A model generated the notes under the pieces. That model saw only the letters and a list, made by a program, of their open reading frames with translations, ran no database searches and was not told where the DNA came from. DNA of 32,000 nucleotides from Gammaproteobacteria bacterium (lineage in GTDB: Bacteria > Pseudomonadota > Gammaproteobacteria > JBIOEC01), in contig OZ257143.1 in the NCBI GenBank assembly GCA_965279305.1, forward strand, positions 1,080,001-1,112,000, given 5' to 3'. Below, in pieces: positions 3,925-26,636 of this stretch. The position numbers and the translations under genes were made by a program. Position 1 is the first letter of the stretch; every line of letters starts with the position of its first letter.

Positions 3925-5598
3925 ATGGTAGCAAACGTAAGAACGCCCGAACAAATCGCAATCGCGGAAGAAGCCTTATTCATCCATGTATCCGATTTAC
4001 CTGAAAATTTAGATCAGTATTACTCAAGTCATAAAACAGCGAAAGCCACTCAATTGGGTGTACAGGATCAGATAAAATTGGTGGCTGGTCTTCGAAGTAT
4101 TTTGCGTAATAAAAATTATGACAAACCTGGAAAATTGGAAAGCGAATTAGAACGAATAACAGTAGATGCTAACGTCGCCAAAAAAGCGATGGGTCAATTG
4201 GTCAATCTGCCTACTGCGGTTAAACGTGAAGTGTTTGGTTTTGATAAAAATATTACTGATGCTGGTGTAGAGCAAGCATTTCAATATTGGGTTTCTGGAT
4301 CCAGTATCGTTTTAGATTTGAATGGTGATCCTGCTACGGATGAAAAAGCTACCCAAATCGCCAAAGAAATCACCAGAGCTCCAAGTGCTAAAAAGGAACC
4401 GCGTATTTTGGGAGAAGAATATGATCCTAATATGGTTGAAATGATAGAAAGACATGCCGCCCAAGCGGGCAGACCTGTTACTCCCGTGTCACCAACCGAA
4501 GATATCCCTATTTATAAATCTCTTGATTTTAATACCCAAGGTTTTGAAGCCATTGTTCAGGCTTTAGGTAATGGTTTTATTCTACGAAATATAGATGTTG
4601 GCTTTTTTACCCCACCTGAAAATACAAGCTTATTAGATAGGGCAGCAAGAGTTTTAACCCGAACAAGCAAAGATAAAAACGCTGTATCAGCAGATGCGGT
4701 TGTGGCTTTAGCTAAAATATTACCAGCTCTAGATGCTGATACTTTGAGTTTTAGAGCATGGAATGGATTAGAAGAAGGCGCATTAAATGCGGTTATCGCC
4801 GGTATGGCAAATAATGGACATATTCGAATATTAGATATATCCGGTAGTAAAGTAAGTGAAAATACGGGTAAAGCTTTAGGTCGGATGTTAGCTGAAAATA
4901 AAGGTTTGTTAAGTGTGGTGGTAGATAATTGTTTTTTTGATGTACATGCTTTTAAACCTATACATGCTGGTGTAGAAAAAAATCATAACATCATTAAATT
5001 TGATATTAGTCGTGCTTCCAGTTTCGTTCCGGGTTCTAAAGAATTAGGATCGGTACGTGATATAGCGTTTCATGCTACGAATAGTGATGCGGCTGTCGAA
5101 GCCTGGGGCACAAGAATAGAAAATATACTTTATATGCATCAGTCAGAAGCTGATGCGGCCGTTTTAAAATCGGCTGAAGCAGCAGAAGAAACAGGCTCGG
5201 ATGTTGAGCCAGAAGGTCCAGCTGTTTCGAATATATTGTTCCAAGCTGAATCTAACCTTGCACAAGTGAGAAAGAATAATTTAAAAATCGTTCGTGCTCC
5301 TGCATCACCTGCAAGTAGCGTTTCAAGTTTATCGGGTTCTTCCTCTATGTCTGCCAGTACCGCGAGTATGACATCAGTGGGAACACCTTCAAGTCCAATA
5401 TCACCTGCAACGTCTTCATCATTGTTGTCGGTACCTTCATCACCTGTTCGCAGCAGAATGGTGAGAGCACCTTCTAGAGAAACGCCTCCTGTTTCACCTG
5501 TGGCTTCTCCTAGTGTTGCTAGAAAATTGGTAGTGGCTCCTGTGCCTCAGGGTGTGGATGGTCCTACTCCAAAACCGTCGTCTCCTTCTCCTAAATAA
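3925..5598 (+). CDS. hypothetical protein with RNI/RanGAP-type leucine-rich repeats and a Ser/Pro-rich C-terminal tail (effector-like)
   Basis: 557-aa ORF. Residues ~198-364 (nt ~4516-5016) show a 28-29-residue periodicity of the ribonuclease-inhibitor LRR type, e.g. NGLEEGALNAVIAGMANNGHIRILDISGS, KVSENTGKALGRMLAENKGLLSVVVDNC and FFDVHAFKPIHAGVEKNHNIIKFDISRA. The last ~105 residues are low-complexity S/P/A/V. I recognise no enzymatic motif. Confidence 0.6.
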   Translation: MVANVRTPEQIAIAEEALFIHVSDLPENLDQYYSSHKTAKATQLGVQDQIKLVAGLRSILRNKNYDKPGKLESELERITVDANVAKKAMGQLVNLPTAVKREVFGFDKNITDAGVEQAFQYWVSGSSIVLDLNGDPATDEKATQIAKEITRAPSAKKEPRILGEEYDPNMVEMIERHAAQAGRPVTPVSPTEDIPIYKSLDFNTQGFEAIVQALGNGFILRNIDVGFFTPPENTSLLDRAARVLTRTSKDKNAVSADAVVALAKILPALDADTLSFRAWNGLEEGALNAVIAGMANNGHIRILDISGSKVSENTGKALGRMLAENKGLLSVVVDNCFFDVHAFKPIHAGVEKNHNIIKFDISRASSFVPGSKELGSVRDIAFHATNSDAAVEAWGTRIENILYMHQSEADAAVLKSAEAAEETGSDVEPEGPAVSNILFQAESNLAQVRKNNLKIVRAPASPASSVSSLSGSSSMSASTASMTSVGTPSSPISPATSSSLLSVPSSPVRSRMVRAPSRETPPVSPVASPSVARKLVVAPVPQGVDGPTPKPSSPSPK

Positions 5599-12273: not shown

Positions 12274-12314
12274 CGAAACAGAAGTCATATTTACTTAGTA
12301 CAAGGAAGTGCAGT

Positions 12315-15300
12315 ATGCCAACAATAAGATCAGAAGGTGGAGTTGCTGTAGCTCCTGCACCAGCCCATTTAACTCTCGCTTACGAAACTACTTTACCTAC
12401 AGAACAGCCCACTACTTTAGCTGCACCCGATCGTATTCGGGAGATGTTCGATAAATTAACTCCAAGTCAAAAAGAAGCGCTAAAGTCCATAGTGATAGGC
12501 GCTATGTCGTTTGGATCTTTGGGTTTAGAGGCTCATAAAGCTATTGCTAAAGATATCAATACGCTTGCCATGCTTCTTCATGGTGTCACTACTATGGCCG
12601 AATTACTGGCCAAAGGCCGTGCTTATCCCATGAGTAATAGTGGCGAAGGTGGAGAGCTGCCATCACGTCTTGGCACAGATGAACAAAGTAGAATGGTTCA
12701 GATAGCATCGGGACATTTCGGTGTAACCATTGAATATGTAGCCAATGCTAGTGGGATCCAAATTAAAATTAATCAAGCCGCTAAGCCTGGACTTGGTGGT
12801 GAACTATTGGCTGTTAAAGTTACTCCCGAAATTGCAGCGGCTCGTTTAGTTCCGCAAGGGATTGATCTTAAATCTCCGCCTCCTCATCACGATCTTTATT
12901 CAGTAGAAGAATTAAAACAATTAATACTGGAATTGCGCATTGCTAATCCTAATGCATTTATTTCAGTGAAACTGGCAGCACAAGAAGGGATCGGTATTAT
13001 TGCTGCTGCTTTAGTAAAATGCGGTGCTGATGATATTTGTATTGCGGGTAAAGGGGGCGGTACAGGTGCTGCTCCTACGGATGCTCTTTATAATTTTGCC
13101 AGACCTTGGGAAACTGCACTGGCTGAAGTGCATCAAACATTAATTGCGAATGGTATACGCGATCGAGTCACTTTAACAGTAAGTGGTGGGATACAAACCG
13201 GGTTTGATTTATTTCTTGCGAAATTACTAGGTGCTGATTTAGGCGAAATAGGAACGCCTGCATTAGTCGCTTTGGGATGTGTGATGGCACGTGTGTGCCA
13301 TGATGGAACGTGCCCTAAAGGTATTGCTACTAATAATCCTGACTACACTTCCAAATTTGAAGGAAAATACGGTGATGTAGCCCAAATGTTGGTTAATCTT
13401 GCTACTTCGTATGATGACCATTTGCAAGAATATGGTTTGACCACTGAAAGTGCTAGAGGAAGAACAGATTTACTGAGAGTAAAAGAAGGCGCTCCTTTTA
13501 CTAATCTTGAAATGCTTTTATTGCAGCCTGAAAACCCTTATAAATCTTTTACTGCTCCTGTCAGAATTGATCCTGTTAGTACTACAGAGCAATATGCGAT
13601 TGAACAAATTCTACAAGGTAAAACGGATATTGTAATAGATGGAAACAATACGAATACCTTAGGTTTTGGTGCACGTATTGGGTATCACTCTGTAAAAACA
13701 GCTGAATTCCAAGATGCTTTTGTTAATCCCGTCACTATTACCTTTAATGGCTTAGCCGTAGGTTCGGGTTTTGGTACTTTTGCACCTGCTGGTCTTACAT
13801 TAGTGGCTCGCAATGCTAATGATGGTGCCGCTAAATCTTTAAGCGGCGCTGATGTTGTCTGTACTCAAAGTATTGGTAATCAAGCCGGTCTTGGTGCTAC
13901 TAGCGGTAGAATATTTGCTCCGGTGTGGGGTGACAGGCCACTGGTTAGAAACTCGGGTGCAATAGCAGTGGCAGAGCGAATTGGTGATTGCGGCGCTAAT
14001 TATATGACGGGCGGTAGTCTTACTATTTTGGGTGATACTCTTGATTACCCCATCACATTTACTCATGGTAATACCAGCTCGCCAATGAAGTTTCGATCTG
14101 ATCGTGTGGGGCCTAATTTCGGATCAGGCATGACGGGCGGGCATGTGTTTATGCCCAGACATTTATATGAAGAGTTATTAAGAAAGAATCATTTAGAAGC
14201 TGCTTTTGCTAATGTTCAACTACAACATTTAAATGAGACTGATGCTGCTGAACTGGCTGCTCTTGTAAAAGACTATTTAACTCATAATTCTAGCGATTGG
14301 GTAAAAGAATTAGTTGAGCAAGAAAATTTTTCACAGTTTTTTATAAAATTAGATCCTCGAGTGCTTAAACCCGTTTTACAACCTGCTTCTGTAGAACCAG
14401 TTAAATCGCCAGATTTACTTCCTGTTCCAGAAATTGTAGTAAGACCACCTTCAGCGGTTCCTGGGCAAGATACTGAAACATCAACAACTGCATCGCTAGA
14501 TAATTTGAGTGTTCCTCCACGAGATGAGCAAGATGCTTGTGGTGTGGGTACTTTTATTAATTTAAAAGGTGAGTCTAGCCGAACTGTGACTGATAATGCA
14601 TTAACTATGCTAGAAAGAATGATGCATAGAGGTGCTAGTGGCGTTGATAAAGACACAGGCGATGGATGCGGTATTGTTTGGTATGGTTTAGAAGAGTTTT
14701 TTCAAGCCGTTTTTCCTGATTTAAATCCTAGAGGAATAAGATTAGAAAGAGGAGCTTATAGTGTTATTCCTATTAGTATCGGAGACGACACATCTTATAG
14801 TGTCCGTCGTGTTTTGAATGAATTATTAATCAAAGAAGATTTACACATTGCAAGTGAAAGAGATGTTCACACGGCCAAGCCTACGGAGAATGATCCTATT
14901 TTCTTAGGTACGATTGGAGCTAGCCAAGAAAAAGGTGTTAAACAATATTTGGTATTGAAGCCAGTTTGGATGAACCAAGAAGAATTTGAAAAACGATTAA
15001 TACGTGTGAGATTACTTTTTGAATTAGATCCAAAAACTCAAGCCAAGGAAAATCGCCCTCATATTTATAGTGCTTCGTCTTATAATGTGATTTATAAATC
15101 ACTCGTTTTAGAAAGTAGATTTAGAAAATATTTTGATGATTTTTTAAATCCGTTATTCAAGGCAAGTGCTGCCGTTTCTCATGCGCGCTTTTCTACCAAT
15201 ACTAAGCCAGTGGGTAAAAATATTCAGCCTACTCCTAACGTAGCGAATAATGGTGAAAATAATAATATTGTGCAGCTGATGCGGCAGATTATGTATAACC

Positions 15301-18300
15301 CTTTATTTGCCAAATTGTTAGGTATTGAACGTATTGATATATCCGGATTAAGCGATTCACACATTATGTCGATAGGTATGGATTTTTTCCGCCTATTAGG
15401 ATTTAGCGCAGAAGAAATTGCCGCGTTAACTATTCAAGCTTACAATCCCAACGATCCTGCTCTTAGCCAATTTTATAATTTATTTGGTAATCCTTTTGAA
15501 GGCCCGAATGCCAGCATTATGATTATTGGTGATAAAATTATTGTGGTAAGAGATCTGAATGGTTTTAGACCGCAAAGAGGAATACGCAACAAAGAATTCT
15601 TCTATTCTGGATCTGAAATTGGTCCGGTGGATGAACCGTTCCAGATGGAAGGAGAACTATTTGATATTCCTCCTGGAAAACCTGTCGTTATTGATTTAAA
15701 AACAGGTACAGTGACTATTGATCCTTTTCAATCGTTTGCCCCTGCACTGGCTGAAAAATTAAAAGCATTAGAAGCCCATTTATCTGCAGATGAGATGCCA
15801 GCCGCTCTTGTTTTTTCACAAGAAGATCTTTCCGTTCGCAAATTACGTGCGGGTTGGGATGCACAAATTGATAGAAAATTTATGCAACCTCTTTTTAATG
15901 GAGGTAAAGGTTCTATTTCTTCCATGGGAGATCAAGGTCCTGATGAAGCATCTGTATCGGGTGGTTTGCTCGTGCTAGGCAATGCTATTCTGGGAAATGT
16001 GGCACAAATTACGAATCCTCCTTTAGATAGAAAGCGTGAAGGCGCTTATATGCAGACGATTACTTTTGTTGGTAAAAAACCTGCATTGGAAGGATTAAGA
16101 AGTAACGATATAGAAGGTGTCACTTTACCTTCACCCATTATTTCTAATGAACAGATGGCTTTATTACAAAATGATAGTCGTTTACGTTCAGAAGTTATTG
16201 ATATAACAATCCCTCTCAACAAGGTGAAAGGTGGTTTAGAAGCGGCTATTAAAAATGTGGTGCTGCATGTTTTGCAGCTGGTTCGTTCGGGTGCAACTTT
16301 TATTACATTATCCGATTTAAATGTAGATAATGAACATGCTGCTATTCCTCCTTTATTAGTAGCGAGTCGTGTCGATCAAGCTTTATTGGAAGCGGGTTTA
16401 CGTCGTAATGTTTCTATTGGGTTACAAGCCGCCAGTGTATTGACGGTGCGTGATGTGGCTCAAGCCATTTCTATTGGTGGTGTTGATTTGGTTAATCCGT
16501 ATTTACCGTTAACGCCTACTTCTCAAGAAGAATTTGCTTCTCCTGAATTTAAACGACGTTCTAAAGAATATATAAAACAATTAACACTAGGGCTGCAAGA
16601 CAATGCTGCTCGTATGGGTATATCAAGTATTTCTGCTTATCGTGGAACCAAAGTATTTAGCGGATATGGATTAAGTGATGATATAGCGAAGATGTTAGGC
16701 ATTCCTTCTATTTTAGGTGGCATTGGTCTATCAGATGTAGAAAATATGGTGGTTAATACACACTGTTATCCTAATCCTGAAGGAAATGGAAAGTATGAAG
16801 GTGGAAGTGAACAGCGCCTCGATATTTGGGGTGATGGAGTAGCTGCAGATGCCGCTAGAATTATCAGTGGAAAATCCAAAACTACCTGGTCTGACATGGA
16901 AGCAAAAATGCAAGCCCGCCAAAATGCGCCACGCAATTTTTTATATTTAGTGCAACCTAAGGTGTGGACAGCTAAAAATCCGATGACCGTTTGTATTTTG
17001 GGTGGTGGTGCCGCTGGTTTTTTTCAAGCAAGAACTTTATTAGATTCTGGATTGCCAGTAAACATTGTTATTATCGAAAAAAATGCTAGAAATCAATTTG
17101 GATTGGTAAAAGACGGTGTTGCACCGGATCATGACGCAACCAAAAGCCGTAGCGAATTGTTACATAGCGTTTTAGATGATCCTCGAGTTAAATATTGGGG
17201 GGGGATAGAAGTGGGTGAGGAAGGAGACAATTCAGTTTCTTTTGCACATTTACAAAAAACGTATCCGTGTATTGTGGATTGCAGAGGAGCTTCGGTAGAT
17301 AATAAATTAGGCGTTCAAGGCGAAAATACGCCTTACGTGATTCCTGCTAGTGTGGTGTATAAATCTTATAATGGTGCAGTGGATCTGGATGCAGAAGGGC
17401 ATAAAGATTGGTGGTTAACGCCACAGAGCCGAAATCTTACGGTTGGCATTATTGGAAATGGAAATGTGGCAGGCGATATTGCGCGAATTTTCTTAGCGGA
17501 TCCTCAAAAATTAGCTCAAACCTCTATTCATCCCATTTTCTTAAATTCATTAAAAAAAGATGCTCCGCAAGTGGTTCGCGTATTTGCACGTGGTAATGCA
17601 CATGAAACCAAAATAGATTTACATCAATTGAAGGCATTAGAAACATTAGGAATACAAATTTCAGTATCTATGCCTGCTTTGAAAGAAGGCCAGCAGCTTA
17701 CTGATGAGCAACGTGCGCTGTATAGTTTTTTTGCTCAATATAAAGATAAAAAATATCCACCATCTAGTAAAAAAACATTGCATTTCCATTTTGGAATGAC
17801 CCCGCAAAAATTTGAAGCGGGACAAAAAGAAGTAACAGGATTTTTTACTGACTCTAGTGGAAACATTATTGCTTTTGATGCACGTAATTTTATTACGGCT
17901 ATTGGAACCAAACGATTATCGGATATACAAAGAACACCTTATGCTAGCGGTTGGGTAGCAGGACAAGGTGGTACTTTAGATAAAGCAGAAGACAGTGCAC
18001 AAGCTACTACCGATATAATTGTTAAAGATTTTAATGCGGGCAAATTTCATAATACTTTGCGACCACCAGTAAAACAACATTGGCACAAACTGGCTCAAGT
18101 GACCAATGGTATGTTCTTGAATATTCTTGCTTATGTGGCCAGTGGTGGTCGAATAGATACTCAAGACGGTCTTGAAAAAGCCAAAGCCTATTCTAGAGGA
18201 AACGGAAGTAGTGCCAAGCTTAAAGTAGCACCCCAACCCGTTCCAGCTCCTGCAGCAGATGTAGATCGCAACACTATTCGTGTTGAAGATAAAGATGGAA

Positions 18301-18662
18301 ATGTGACAGTGTTGCCTATACCTGAGGAAAATGTTTCTTTATTAGAATATTTAGATAAAACTCAGCCTAGCGGAAAAGTACCTGAAGCCGAATGTGGTGG
18401 TAAAGGAAATTGCGCTACTTGTGGGGTAGATGTGCTTGAAATAGAAGACTTAGGTGGATTGTTGAGTCATCGAAAAGAGCAGGGAAGAGATGTTGGGCCT
18501 GAGGGTGAAAGAAGAAGATTGTCTTGTTTGCATCAGACAGATGAGTTTACAGGTCAAGGTGCAAAAGTAAGAATAGTGAAACCGCAGAATGCGCCAGCAC
18601 CTGCTGCCTCGAACGCGCCAGACCCCGGTCCAAAACCTCTATCTGTTGCCTCTATGCAGTGA
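12315..18662 (+). CDS. giant multidomain flavo-iron-sulfur protein: circularly permuted glutamate synthase large-subunit homolog fused to an adrenodoxin-reductase-like domain and a [2Fe-2S] ferredoxin domain
   Basis: Uninterrupted 2115-aa ORF with a good SD. Domains N to C: the GltS FMN domain (SNSGEGGE at nt 12633, SPPPHHDLYSVEEL, GGGTGAAP, Cys322-x5-Cys328-x4-Cys333 at 13278-13313). Next the GXGXG domain (VRNSGAIAVAE, GDCGANYMTGG, GSGMTGGHVF) and a Pro-rich linker. Then the class-II amidotransferase domain starting CGVGTF (Cys742, nt 14538) with HRGA, HARFSTNT and NNGE. Then the GltS central domain (VAQITNPPLDRKREG). Then an AdR/FprA-type reductase (ILGGGAAG, FGLVKDGVAPDH, GNGNVAGDIARI, SGWV). 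Last, an Adx-type ferredoxin (C2027-x5-C-x2-C-x34-C2071). Confidence 0.85.
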   Translation: MPTIRSEGGVAVAPAPAHLTLAYETTLPTEQPTTLAAPDRIREMFDKLTPSQKEALKSIVIGAMSFGSLGLEAHKAIAKDINTLAMLLHGVTTMAELLAKGRAYPMSNSGEGGELPSRLGTDEQSRMVQIASGHFGVTIEYVANASGIQIKINQAAKPGLGGELLAVKVTPEIAAARLVPQGIDLKSPPPHHDLYSVEELKQLILELRIANPNAFISVKLAAQEGIGIIAAALVKCGADDICIAGKGGGTGAAPTDALYNFARPWETALAEVHQTLIANGIRDRVTLTVSGGIQTGFDLFLAKLLGADLGEIGTPALVALGCVMARVCHDGTCPKGIATNNPDYTSKFEGKYGDVAQMLVNLATSYDDHLQEYGLTTESARGRTDLLRVKEGAPFTNLEMLLLQPENPYKSFTAPVRIDPVSTTEQYAIEQILQGKTDIVIDGNNTNTLGFGARIGYHSVKTAEFQDAFVNPVTITFNGLAVGSGFGTFAPAGLTLVARNANDGAAKSLSGADVVCTQSIGNQAGLGATSGRIFAPVWGDRPLVRNSGAIAVAERIGDCGANYMTGGSLTILGDTLDYPITFTHGNTSSPMKFRSDRVGPNFGSGMTGGHVFMPRHLYEELLRKNHLEAAFANVQLQHLNETDAAELAALVKDYLTHNSSDWVKELVEQENFSQFFIKLDPRVLKPVLQPASVEPVKSPDLLPVPEIVVRPPSAVPGQDTETSTTASLDNLSVPPRDEQDACGVGTFINLKGESSRTVTDNALTMLERMMHRGASGVDKDTGDGCGIVWYGLEEFFQAVFPDLNPRGIRLERGAYSVIPISIGDDTSYSVRRVLNELLIKEDLHIASERDVHTAKPTENDPIFLGTIGASQEKGVKQYLVLKPVWMNQEEFEKRLIRVRLLFELDPKTQAKENRPHIYSASSYNVIYKSLVLESRFRKYFDDFLNPLFKASAAVSHARFSTNTKPVGKNIQPTPNVANNGENNNIVQLMRQIMYNPLFAKLLGIERIDISGLSDSHIMSIGMDFFRLLGFSAEEIAALTIQAYNPNDPALSQFYNLFGNPFEGPNASIMIIGDKIIVVRDLNGFRPQRGIRNKEFFYSGSEIGPVDEPFQMEGELFDIPPGKPVVIDLKTGTVTIDPFQSFAPALAEKLKALEAHLSADEMPAALVFSQEDLSVRKLRAGWDAQIDRKFMQPLFNGGKGSISSMGDQGPDEASVSGGLLVLGNAILGNVAQITNPPLDRKREGAYMQTITFVGKKPALEGLRSNDIEGVTLPSPIISNEQMALLQNDSRLRSEVIDITIPLNKVKGGLEAAIKNVVLHVLQLVRSGATFITLSDLNVDNEHAAIPPLLVASRVDQALLEAGLRRNVSIGLQAASVLTVRDVAQAISIGGVDLVNPYLPLTPTSQEEFASPEFKRRSKEYIKQLTLGLQDNAARMGISSISAYRGTKVFSGYGLSDDIAKMLGIPSILGGIGLSDVENMVVNTHCYPNPEGNGKYEGGSEQRLDIWGDGVAADAARIISGKSKTTWSDMEAKMQARQNAPRNFLYLVQPKVWTAKNPMTVCILGGGAAGFFQARTLLDSGLPVNIVIIEKNARNQFGLVKDGVAPDHDATKSRSELLHSVLDDPRVKYWGGIEVGEEGDNSVSFAHLQKTYPCIVDCRGASVDNKLGVQGENTPYVIPASVVYKSYNGAVDLDAEGHKDWWLTPQSRNLTVGIIGNGNVAGDIARIFLADPQKLAQTSIHPIFLNSLKKDAPQVVRVFARGNAHETKIDLHQLKALETLGIQISVSMPALKEGQQLTDEQRALYSFFAQYKDKKYPPSSKKTLHFHFGMTPQKFEAGQKEVTGFFTDSSGNIIAFDARNFITAIGTKRLSDIQRTPYASGWVAGQGGTLDKAEDSAQATTDIIVKDFNAGKFHNTLRPPVKQHWHKLAQVTNGMFLNILAYVASGGRIDTQDGLEKAKAYSRGNGSSAKLKVAPQPVPAPAADVDRNTIRVEDKDGNVTVLPIPEENVSLLEYLDKTQPSGKVPEAECGGKGNCATCGVDVLEIEDLGGLLSHRKEQGRDVGPEGERRRLSCLHQTDEFTGQGAKVRIVKPQNAPAPAASNAPDPGPKPLSVASMQ

Positions 18663-20794: not shown

Positions 20795-20870
20795 GGGGCT
20801 ATAGCTCAGCTGGTAGAGCACTTGCATGGCATGCAAGGGGTCAGCGGTTCGATCCCGCTTAGCTCCACCA
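20795..20870 (+). tRNA. tRNA-Ala (anticodon GGC)
   Basis: 76 nt: GGGGCTA/TAGCTCC acceptor stem, anticodon stem CTTGC/GCAAG, loop ATGGCAT, T-arm AGCGG-TTCGATC-CCGCT, encoded CCA. Nearly identical to my recollection of E. coli tRNA-Ala(GGC). Confidence 0.97.
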
Positions 20871-20900
20871 TGTGGCTTTGAGATAGCTCAGAAAATATGT

Positions 20901-20976
20901 GTCCCCATCGTCTAGAGGCCTAGGACATTGCCCTTTCACGGCAGTAACAGGGGTTCGAATCCCCTTGGGGACGCCA
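20901..20976 (+). tRNA. tRNA-Glu (anticodon UUC)
   Basis: 76 nt: GTCCCCA/TGGGGAC acceptor stem, anticodon loop CTTTCAC, T-arm AGGGG-TTCGAAT-CCCCT, encoded CCA. Confidence 0.97.
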
Positions 20977-21040: not shown

Positions 21041-21133
21041 TCGAACTTTAGTTCGACCAAATTGCCAGGAGCAATTTGGAACGCACGAAGTGCGGCCCCG
21101 AATGAAATGAGGGGCGAGGCGCAGGGATGCGCC
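21041..21133. repeat. run of five short hairpins between the tRNA-Glu terminator and the duplicated tRNA 3' segment
   Basis: The hairpins are TCGAACT-TT-AGTTCGA (21041-21056), CCAAATTGC-CAGGA-GCAATTTGG (21057-21079), CGCAC-GAA-GTGCG (21082-21094), GCCCC-N11-GGGGC (21095-21115) and GGCGCA-GGGA-TGCGCC (21118-21133). Confidence 0.55.
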
Positions 21134-21137
21134 GAGT

Positions 21138-21152
21138 AATCCCCTTGGGGAC
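21138..21152 (+). repeat. 15-bp perfect direct repeat of the tRNA-Glu T-arm/acceptor 3' segment (att-like scar)
   Basis: AATCCCCTTGGGGAC at 21138-21152 is identical to 20958-20972 inside tRNA-Glu. The second copy has no CCA and no upstream tRNA body. Confidence 0.8.
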
Positions 21153-21186
21153 ACTACTTTATTGGGCTTTTTTAACAGGTGTACCT

Positions 21187-21681
21187 ATGCAAGAAATTAT
21201 CGCTATCGAGACCTTAAGAAATGCTTTTCGCCCAATAGAGCAATTTAAAGCAGAGCATACTACGTTCAATATGCTGACTTTTCATAGTGCTGCTCGAAAT
21301 GCTTTGCTAGCTATGGAGATCGCCACTCGAATAATGACAGATAGTAATGTGCTAGGTAGGATGGAACCACACTTTCAGCAGGCATTTTATCTTTCCAATA
21401 GTGGTATGCTCTTCACTATTATTGCTTTCCGTTTTCATTCTCTGATAGGGCAACTGGGTGATGATAAGAAAGCAGAGCTTTCAGAGGATTCTATTAAAGC
21501 AGAAGCGGCTACTCGCTTCTCTCATATATCTACCCTGCAGCAACTACTGAACAGTCCAGACTCACCTTATTTTAGGGCGATAGAGCATTTTACTACCCTT
21601 AAAAATGCACAACTTGCTGTTACACCTCCTAGCGTGCCGCCTGCACCAGCACGTGGACCTTCAGTTGCTCCTGCTGCATAA
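21187..21681 (+). CDS. orphan hypothetical protein with a Pro/Ala-rich C-terminal tail
   Basis: The ORF track gives 21127-21681, but its first 20 codons overlap the hairpin run and the tRNA-derived repeat. The internal ATG at 21187 has an AGGTG SD (21177-21181) 5 nt upstream, giving 164 aa (MQEIIAIETLRN...). I recognise no family. The tail is TPPSVPPAPARGPSVAPAA. A terminator follows. Confidence 0.55.
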   Translation: MQEIIAIETLRNAFRPIEQFKAEHTTFNMLTFHSAARNALLAMEIATRIMTDSNVLGRMEPHFQQAFYLSNSGMLFTIIAFRFHSLIGQLGDDKKAELSEDSIKAEAATRFSHISTLQQLLNSPDSPYFRAIEHFTTLKNAQLAVTPPSVPPAPARGPSVAPAA

Positions 21682-25816: not shown

Positions 25817-26636
25817 ACAACGAATAGTAACAGGGATAGTGCTTGCAGTTTTATTGCTTCTTGTCATTTATGTATTACCTAGACCACTTTTCACTATCGC
25901 TATAGGCGCAGTGGTGATGTTAGGCGCATGGGAGTGGACCATGCTAAGTAATTTACGTGCGAAAAATAAGCGAATCGGTTATTTGGCATTAATAGCTGTT
26001 TTATTTTTACTGATGATGTTGGTGCCTATGCATCAATCCATTGTGGTAGTAAGTACAATTTCGATTGTGTGGTGGTTATGTGCTGCTATCGGAATTTTGC
26101 GTTTTCAGCGAAAAACACAGACATTTCCTCGTAATACTGAAGTTTTAAATTTAATTGGTCTGCTCGTTTTACTTCCTTTCTGGTTTTCTGTGGTGATGTT
26201 AAATAGCGGCTCTGTTATTTATGATGCTGCTAATCCTGTATTACTTTTCGCTATTATCTTAATTGCTCTTGCCGATACTTCAGCGTATTTTGCTGGAAGA
26301 CAATGGGGTAAACATAAATTGGCTAGCAACGTCAGTCCGGGCAAAACCTGGGAAGGTTTACTTGGTGCGGTGCTTGCTGTTACAGTGGTGGTGATCCCTC
26401 TGGCGAAGGTGCTAGGAATTACTGCTTTGTCTCAAATGGATTTGTTATTGTTAGCTTTTATCACGGTGATAGCGGCTTTAGTCGGTGACTTATTTGAAAG
26501 CGTGATAAAGCGAATTGCTAATGTAAAAGACAGTGGACGTTTACTGCCTGGCCATGGAGGTGTCTTAGATCGCATTGATGCGTATACTGCTGCGGTACCT
26601 ATTTTTATGGCGGTATATTTTGTCTTAGCAGGATAA
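25809..26636 (+). CDS. cdsA: phosphatidate cytidylyltransferase
   Basis: 275 aa, polytopic membrane protein with the CDS signature SVIKRIANVKDSGRLLPGHGGVLDRIDA. Its GTG start overlaps the uppS stop. Confidence 0.92.
   Translation: MLKQRIVTGIVLAVLLLLVIYVLPRPLFTIAIGAVVMLGAWEWTMLSNLRAKNKRIGYLALIAVLFLLMMLVPMHQSIVVVSTISIVWWLCAAIGILRFQRKTQTFPRNTEVLNLIGLLVLLPFWFSVVMLNSGSVIYDAANPVLLFAIILIALADTSAYFAGRQWGKHKLASNVSPGKTWEGLLGAVLAVTVVVIPLAKVLGITALSQMDLLLLAFITVIAALVGDLFESVIKRIANVKDSGRLLPGHGGVLDRIDAYTAAVPIFMAVYFVLAG

Follow-up and report, generated by a model that had tools for sequence, protein, structure and literature searches.

What does a gene encode in which the domains of a glutamate synthase follow one another in an unfamiliar order and run on, in the same frame, into a reductase and a ferredoxin? 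The question is raised by an uninterrupted open reading frame (ORF) of 2115 codons plus stop at positions 12315..18662 of the forward strand of a 32,000-nucleotide stretch, here called the window, from a Gammaproteobacteria bacterium (GCA_965279305.1, contig OZ257143.1, positions 1,080,001 to 1,112,000). The features described below lie on the forward strand unless stated otherwise. A stop-free run of this length would be expected by chance, from the base composition, with a probability of about 1e-62. We put at roughly two in three the probability that the gene encodes a working glutamine:2-oxoglutarate amidotransferase (GOGAT; glutamate synthase, GltS) of a previously undescribed class that is built from two modules. 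This proposal would place an activity, a nucleotide preference, an electron path and a cleavage on top of the observed domains and their order, the conservation of residues and a family with three arrangements, and these layers are taken up in turn.

In the ORF product the four GltS domains stand in the Pfam order Glu_synthase, GXGXG, GATase_2 and Glu_syn_central. BLASTP against five canonical large subunits returns segments that are rotated likewise, residues 56-689 aligning to approximately 924-1572 and residues 735-1484 to approximately 50-828 of the canonical chains, and the breakpoint of the rotation coincides with the canonical linker between the central domain and the flavin mononucleotide (FMN) domain. 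The canonical order on one chain, namely glutamine amidotransferase (GAT), central, FMN and beta-helix domain, was found neither in the Pfam matches nor in the BLASTP segments, and the NCBIfam equivalog model of GltB scores 642.7 bits against a cutoff of 1047. The best solved relatives of the core are B. subtilis GltA (7mfm), Azospirillum GltS (1ea0, 6s6s) and the ferredoxin-dependent GltS (Fd-GltS) of Synechocystis (1llw). An earlier annotation made from the letters of the DNA without database searches (the sequence-only reading) had already described this single ORF as a circularly permuted alpha chain, and it had suggested a check of domain identity and order with hidden Markov models, which gave a non-canonical order with the reductase and ferredoxin modules present. 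The seven segments that it had listed are all found, in the order that it gave: an FMN/TIM-barrel domain with the cysteines C322-x5-C328-x4-C333, a GXGXG beta-helix in second place, a Pro-rich linker, an N-terminal nucleophile (Ntn) amidotransferase that begins with CGVGTF at Cys742, a GltS central domain, a reductase of the adrenodoxin reductase (AdR)/FprA type rather than the GltD type, and an adrenodoxin-type ferredoxin (Fdx) at the end.

The synthase half opens with a variable extension rich in Pro, Ala, Thr and Glu (residues 1-40; 12315..12434), which is unconserved ahead of column I41 of the family alignment A1, the first conserved block of the family being I41-REMF. The FMN/synthase TIM-barrel domain follows (residues 52-374; 12468..13436; PF01645 Glu_synthase, E 6e-100), with its best PDB matches to 7mfm (E 4e-103), 1ea0 and 1llw. 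Within it, Gln154, Lys157 and Arg177 of the 2-oxoglutarate/FMN site align to canonical motifs and are invariant in an alignment of 24 family sequences; we take these three residues, from the QGAKPG...R motifs of the structural literature on GltS, to be those that bind 2-oxoglutarate. Equally invariant in the 24 members is the ligand triad of the [3Fe-4S] cluster, C322-x5-C328-x4-C333 (13278..13313), which aligns to the LGC..C...C of B. subtilis and Azospirillum GltS. The GXGXG beta-helix domain covers residues 452-614 by Pfam (PF01493, E 5e-22) and extends by BLAST homology to about residue 689 (13668..14381). Relative to the solved GltS structures the family carries two insertions of its own, one of 19 residues directly before the SNSGEGGE motif (residues 83-101; 12561-12617), conserved in the family, and one in the beta-helix domain (residues 575-598; 14037-14108), at either of which the fused ferredoxin or reductase might dock.

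Between the synthase and glutaminase halves lies a Pro/Ser/Thr-rich linker (residues 690-741, 52 residues of which 10 are Pro; 14382..14537) that varies in length across the family and ends in the junction RDEQDA. The class-II (Ntn/PurF-type) GAT domain then begins (residues 742-1134; 14538..15716; GATase_2 PF00310, E 1e-50), and the codon of its nucleophile, the invariant Cys742, is found at 14538..14540. In the alignment of 24 sequences, which spans 37-91% identity, Cys742-Gly743, Arg772, Asn979-Gly980 and Ser1013-Asp1014-Ser1015 are invariant; Cys742, Arg772 and Asn979-Gly980 align to Cys1, Arg31 and Asn227-Gly228 of Azospirillum GltS, and GltS chains in the PDB match the glutaminase-containing part with E 6e-69. 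The GltS central domain (residues 1180-1454; 15852..16676; Glu_syn_central PF04898, E 9e-50) contains AQITNPPLDRKRE and is followed by a connector (residues 1455-1552; 16677..16970), which consists of a remnant of the canonical central-to-FMN linker and then the lead-in to the reductase. By its residues, the product keeps what defines the GltS core, and it departs from the canonical enzymes in domain order and in the lack of GltD.

In place of GltD the chain continues with a domain of the AdR/FprA type that would bind flavin adenine dinucleotide (FAD) and a nicotinamide nucleotide, NAD(P)H (residues ~1553-1960; 16971..18194; motifs ILGGGAAGF, GVAPDH and IIGNGNVAGDIAR). Searched against the PDB with phmmer, it matches FprA (1lqt, E 2e-24) and bovine AdR (1cjc, E 2e-21), and its GxGxxG, GVAPDH and GNVAxDxAR motifs align with those of FprA and AdR and are invariant in the 24-sequence alignment; in the same phmmer search no GltD chain matched the reductase part at E <= 1. 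An AlphaFold2 model of residues 1455-2115 retrieves FprA (5e-26) and AdR (3e-25) with Foldseek, the FprA/AdR matches ranging from 5e-26 to 2e-24 with TM-scores on the target of 0.60-0.66, and the GltD, Nfn and DPD chains lie far behind at about 1e-13. The NCBIfam model of GltD, TIGR01317, reaches 26.9 bits, its cutoff being 447.7. The N-terminal extension with two sets of [4Fe-4S] ligands that is typical of GltD was not found in residues 1455-1552, where there is one Cys only and therefore no [4Fe-4S] site. The origin of the AdR domain, eukaryotic or bacterial, could not be read from its nearest standalone relatives, which, at about 33% identity, are partly FprA-like proteins from bacteria and partly Arh1 of yeast.

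The ferredoxin domain (residues 1984-2090; 18264..18584) carries the [2Fe-2S] ligands C2027, C2033, C2036 and C2071, and this motif, C2027-x5-C2033-x2-C2036-x34-C2071, is invariant in 16 aligned members. As a single sequence the domain is weak, with a Pfam Fer2 E-value of 0.077 and 13.4-19.7 bits against a cutoff of 21. Fer2 is detected in 14 of the 16 members, and the profile A2 built from the 16 matches P450-type and adrenodoxin-type ferredoxins in the PDB (E 4e-8 to 1e-4), namely Arx (3lxf), adrenodoxin, terpredoxin and putidaredoxin (E 4e-8 to 1e-6) and mitochondrial Fdx2. A Pro/Ala-rich tail that is not conserved across the family closes the chain together with the stop codon (residues 2091-2115; 18585..18662).

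The architecture is shared by a rare family of uncultured bacteria and protists. Among 5.8 billion clustered proteins, a search recovered the ORF product itself (P0001, on a 1.87-Mb contig in NCBI/ENA) and 23 further relatives of approximately 1770-2280 residues at 37-91% identity, all recorded with the same four GltS Pfam domains, and in those whose domain positions were examined the order is that of the ORF product; the search across genomes for the same architecture that the sequence-only reading had proposed was thereby answered. In the databases these proteins are named 'hypothetical protein' or, generically, 'glutamate synthase domain-containing protein'. When the AdR-Fdx part was compared exhaustively with 1.84 billion representatives, only 23 proteins reached E <= 1e-30, every one of them a family member or a fragment of one, below which the scores drop to standalone reductases of about 430-450 residues at E 1e-30 or weaker, and approximately 20 clusters among these representatives have the architecture in common. 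In the region of the GAT and central domains the family is monophyletic against canonical GltS (100 of 100 neighbour-joining bootstraps).

Within the family, the parts fall into module A, which is GAT-central-AdR-Fdx (residues 742-2115 of the ORF product), and module B, which is FMN-GXGXG (residues 1-689), and there are three ARRANGEMENTS of these two modules: a B-A fusion, an A-B fusion and a split operon. The B-A form comprises the window protein and about 14 clusters. The A-B form is a protein of 2187 residues (P0263; locus L098, 7029-13592) on a bacterial contig where it adjoins carAB and recG; its GAT (100-444) and central domains (530-783), the AdR domain from 884 and a C-x5-C-x2-C ferredoxin at about 1378 are followed by a Ser/Thr/Pro-rich linker and then by FMN (1539-1865) and GXGXG (1933-2100). 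Split operons occur in a single-cell genome of Candidatus Marinamargulisbacteria (GCA_003265895.1, QFBS01000026.1; locus L099, 8001-14422), where the genes of module A (RAP32559.1, 1439 residues) and module B (RAP32558.1, 700 residues) overlap at TAATG, and on a 135-kb JGI contig (locus L100, 4306-10728), where genes of 1430 and 706 codons are 10 nt apart. All three arrangements are cyclic rotations of GAT, central, AdR, Fdx, FMN and GXGXG, in all of them AdR-Fdx is linked to the GltS core, and no gltD-like gene adjoins any member examined. As far as the sequences tell, the permutation is therefore module shuffling, the window gene having one of three arrangements of two modules; what is new at bottom is that an AdR-Fdx module has been attached behind the central domain, and the rotated order is secondary to it. 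In the simplest history, AdR-Fdx would have joined GltS alpha after its central domain, and the modules would then have split and rejoined in either order. The tree was also examined for the sequence in which the three arrangements arose; its deep branches are weak (12-33 of 100 bootstraps).

The position of the nucleophile bears on the state in which such a protein would work. Mature class-II amidotransferases start with their catalytic Cys, whose N-terminal amine acts as general base. The Azospirillum chains crystallised as 1ea0 and 2vdc have the aligned counterpart of Cys742 as their first residue, the chain of 6s6s, which is numbered as the precursor and counts 1515 residues, has 36 residues ahead of the aligned Cys, and B. 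subtilis GltA loses its activity when Cys1 is changed to Ala (C1A; bioRxiv 10.1101/2021.04.12.439528). With a hyphen placed before the Cys, the junction PPRDEQDA-CGVG of the ORF product aligns to PEFEHDA-CGIG of B. subtilis GltA and to PEDEHDA-CGVG of the Azospirillum precursor; the family keeps it as (E/H)(K/F)D(A/S/N)-CG, as in EKDA-CG, and canonical precursors have EHDA-CG. The linker ahead of the junction measures from about 45 to about 170 residues across the family, and the A genes of the split forms retain 73-94 residues ahead of the Cys. Because the catalytic Cys742 is internal, needs a free alpha-amino group and stands behind a conserved junction, the precursor is predicted to cleave itself between Ala741 and Cys742 into two chains. 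The single polypeptide of the sequence-only reading would accordingly hold for the ORF and the precursor and probably not for the mature state, given the internal Cys and the canonical-like junction.

The same enzyme might instead work as an uncut chain, either with a Cys742 that lacks a free amine or with a silent glutaminase, in which case it would use free ammonia in an NAD(P)H-dependent reaction. The length of the linker between B and A (52 residues here, up to about 170 in relatives) makes covalent continuity sterically possible, and the cleavage is itself a deduction. Against an uncut chain, the invariance of Cys742, Arg772, Asn979-Gly980 and Asp1014 argues for an active glutaminase, the junction is conserved like the canonical propeptide junctions, and the N-terminal amine is the general base of this enzyme class, so that we consider the uncut chain unlikely.

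If the cleaved glutamate synthase is taken as the working enzyme, glutamine would be hydrolysed at Cys742 and the ammonia so released would travel through a tunnel to the FMN site and the 2-oxoglutarate bound there, and the resulting 2-iminoglutarate would be reduced by FMNH2. NAD(P)H, probably NADPH, would reduce the FAD of the AdR domain, from which electrons would pass singly over the fused [2Fe-2S] cluster and the [3Fe-4S] cluster to FMN, and the GltD subunit with its two [4Fe-4S] clusters would be dispensed with. The cut between Ala741 and Cys742 would yield a 1:1 complex of two chains in which module B with the linker is the partner chain, corresponding to what the split two-gene operons encode. 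Adrenodoxin-type clusters have a potential of about -270 mV. With such a cluster the published GltS potentials of about -280 mV for [3Fe-4S] and about -240 mV for FMN (PMC8097209) are compatible.

A different job for the protein would be the conversion of another 2-oxo acid or the use of another amide donor, or an AdR-Fdx part that feeds an external partner such as a P450 or Fe-S biogenesis. Such a role would fit the residues in which the family differs from canonical GltS (Glu163 in place of Gln and Ser290 in place of Asp), the two family-specific insertions and the long branch that sets it apart from canonical GltS with 100% support. It sits poorly with the invariance of Gln154, Lys157 and Arg177, the presumed 2-oxoglutarate binders, and of the whole glutaminase site, and with the strict tie of AdR-Fdx to the GltS core in all three arrangements. 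Some relatives moreover adjoin carAB or arg genes, and no P450 gene adjoins any locus examined. P0004 comes after argJ, argC, carAB, argF, argG and argH, and these neighbours, with the carAB of P0263, support a role in glutamate metabolism; we hold a different job to be quite unlikely. That the ORF is an assembly chimera, separate genes joined by read-through or a pseudogene in decay is next to impossible, the only point in its favour being that raw reads could not be inspected. Over 20 independent assemblies of differing origin, a 664-kb contig among them, have the B-A architecture with 37-91% identity over all junctions, the GC content of the gene (0.403) is close to that of its flanks (0.405), the catalytic residues are invariant and a good Shine-Dalgarno sequence precedes the start (AGGAAG, 12303..12308, read directly from the sequence, 6 nt 5' of the ATG at 12315). 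The ORF is a genuine gene and no assembly artefact, because the same architecture recurs in independent assemblies.

Several observations weigh against a functional glutamate synthase of the proposed kind. Position 163 (12801-12803) turns the canonical GGQL into GGEL, E or Q being found across the family, and Ser290 (13182-13184) replaces the canonical Asp of DGG in the FMN domain, giving an SGG that is invariant in the family; both differences fall in the region of the active site. In the reductase, the 2'-phosphate motif of AdR reads ARG in place of the RRG of AdR and FprA, so that the preference for NADPH or NADH is uncertain. The AlphaFold2 model is moderate (mean predicted local distance difference test score of 67, predicted TM-score of 0.46) and says nothing about how the ferredoxin docks to the synthase domain. 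We know of no precedent for the self-cleavage of a 'propeptide' of 741 residues. A canonical gltBD, a gdhA or a free partner gene may lie outside the 32-kb window, and the case as a whole is drawn entirely from sequence and predicted structure.

How does the proposed enzyme compare with known systems? Reviews distinguish three forms of GltS, namely NADPH-GltS (alpha-beta), Fd-GltS and NADH-GltS (a fusion of alpha and beta), and mention archaeal single-domain ORFs (PMC8097209). The rotated order, a reductase of the AdR/FprA type that lacks [4Fe-4S] clusters and a fused ferredoxin of the adrenodoxin type are each absent from the reviewed forms, and the full-text literature searched contained no description of an enzyme that combines a rotated GltS with AdR-Fdx, in agreement with the sequence-only reading, which had known of no characterised example. 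With NADPH-GltS (GltB and GltD; Azospirillum brasilense 1ea0/6s6s and B. subtilis GltAB 7mfm) the family has in common all four alpha domains at 27-37% identity, the Ntn Cys, the [3Fe-4S] triad, the FMN/2-oxoglutarate motifs and the entry of electrons through pyridine nucleotide and FAD. It differs in that FMN and beta-helix domains precede GAT and central domains, in that GltD and its two [4Fe-4S] clusters are replaced by an AdR/FprA-type reductase and one [2Fe-2S] domain, and in that 741 residues precede the catalytic Cys.

The likeness to Fd-GOGAT (GlsF; Synechocystis 1llw/1ofd) consists of an alpha-type core, a one-electron reduction by a [2Fe-2S] ferredoxin, here predicted, and the absence of [4Fe-4S] clusters. 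In contrast to Fd-GOGAT, the ferredoxin is of the adrenodoxin and not the plant type, is covalently attached and would receive its electrons from the NAD(P)H reductase to which it is fused. In its electron logic the enzyme would be an Fd-GltS that brings along both its ferredoxin and the reductase of that ferredoxin. The loop that Fd-GltS carries after SNSGEGGE is absent, the alignment showing no residues of the ORF product at that position, and the 19-residue insertion stands before the motif instead; that this insertion might be the ferredoxin loop of Fd-GltS was rejected, the two being on opposite sides of SNSGEGGE. Eukaryotic NADH-GOGAT (Glt1-type; P0084) resembles the product in being one precursor of about 2100 residues with an alpha core and a C-terminal reductase, whereas its order is canonical and its beta domain is of the GltD type (PF14691/PF07992 in P0084), and the family forms a separate branch from it (100/100 bootstrap). 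The reductase and ferredoxin in turn share fold, motifs, ferredoxin type, Cys spacing and the logic NADPH to FAD to 2Fe-2S with adrenodoxin reductase/adrenodoxin (1e6e) and M. tuberculosis FprA (1lqt), which are free-standing and serve P450s or Fe-S biogenesis, whereas here one ORF joins the two with a glutamate synthase. We know of no AdR-Fdx module in the archaeal ORFs for GltS domains. These ORFs are a precedent for separately encoded GltS domains such as those of the two split operons L099 and L100 (PMC8097209).

Glutamate synthase is the central entry of nitrogen into biomass, to which the family would add a further solution. If the proposal is true, the exchange of the GltD/[4Fe-4S] wire for an AdR/[2Fe-2S] relay would mean that an adrenodoxin-type ferredoxin can feed the 3Fe-4S/FMN site, and a self-contained, NAD(P)H-driven 'ferredoxin-type' enzyme could be studied and engineered without a separate ferredoxin system. 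Furthermore, the internal nucleophile of a class-II amidotransferase leads to a testable prediction of Ntn self-processing on a large scale, and the three natural arrangements constitute a natural experiment on circular permutation through gene fission and fusion.

The family extends beyond bacteria, and its presence on both bacterial and eukaryotic contigs raises the question of transfer between domains of life. The context is clearly bacterial for the window, P0004, P0008, P0017, P0250, P0263 and the split operons. Eukaryotic contigs (L084, L085, L094, L095, L096) carry members in at least three compositionally distinct groups: P0016 is flanked by genes for COPI, DER1, RabGAP, dynein light chain, syntaxin and Nsp1 (61% GC), P0018 and P0020 by RING, kinase and Myb genes (24-33% GC), and P0022 by a DEAH-helicase C-terminal domain, a faint cNMP-binding match and a zinc-ribbon gene (28% GC). 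A further member (P0261) stands in the EukProt proteome of Paulinella micropora. The gene of P0022 runs over three short introns into its remaining AdR and Fdx exons, and the gene in L085 has three short introns, with exons at 13379-13921, 13959-14039 and 14114-14632. The seemingly truncated P0022, P0023 and P0024 had been considered as natural forms without ferredoxin, which was rejected for P0022, the one of the three that was checked, since its missing exons lie downstream across the introns.

Most members, though none in the clade of the window protein, have an N-terminal extension of 40-100 residues that resembles a mitochondrial presequence, with many basic and hydroxylated and few acidic residues (5-9 K+R and 0-2 D+E in the first 45; P0004-P0015, P0018-P0023, P0250, P0251, P0258-P0260, P0263 and gene B of L099). 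Clearly bacterial loci have it too, and in a split operon both genes carry it. The family has probably passed between protists and bacteria, in one direction or the other. In a wider and more speculative picture, against which we consider the odds to lean somewhat, the family would be a fourth class of glutamate synthase in which the 740-residue synthase module is a self-released 'propeptide' and partner subunit, in which fission and re-fusion gave the split, A-B and B-A forms, and which was exchanged between protists and bacteria, the presequence-like N-termini suggesting a mitochondrial enzyme in protists. A viral origin of the family was considered and discarded, as a scan of IMG/VR found no member and only gltB relatives of canonical length. 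Among the latter, two contigs from giant-virus metagenome-assembled genomes (L089, IMGVR GVMAG-S-1059906-5; L091, GVMAG-S-ERX556043-36) carry gltB relatives of about 1450 residues at 33-34% identity, which could be viral nitrogen-metabolism genes or cellular contamination.

Around the gene, the window is core gammaproteobacterial chromosome, and its PpsA is 70-71% identical to the PpsA of named Pseudomonas and Competibacteraceae. The order is purK, purE, tsaC, asd, fimV, truA, ppsA, the permuted glutamate synthase gene, tpx, purB, tRNA-Ala, tRNA-Glu, rpsB, tsf, pyrH, frr, uppS, cdsA, rseP, bamA and skp, the tandem of tRNA-Ala(GGC) and tRNA-Glu(UUC) lying at 20795-20976 between purB and rpsB. 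Scans for promoters and terminators returned nothing over shuffled expectation. On the reverse strand, an ORF of 124 codons (14282-14656) lies opposite the last part of the GXGXG domain, the linker and GAT codons 1 to 39 and is most likely spurious. Two ORFs without a Pfam match, of 557 codons (3925-5598) and 184 codons (21127-21681), stand amid otherwise annotated housekeeping genes. Eukaryote-associated or unusual genes stand near the family's loci in other bacterial hosts: a gene for an ankyrin-repeat protein lies at 14909-15811 in L100, and in L001 a gene for a hybrid of nonribosomal peptide synthetase and polyketide synthase (NRPS-PKS) with 2812 residues begins at 26135.

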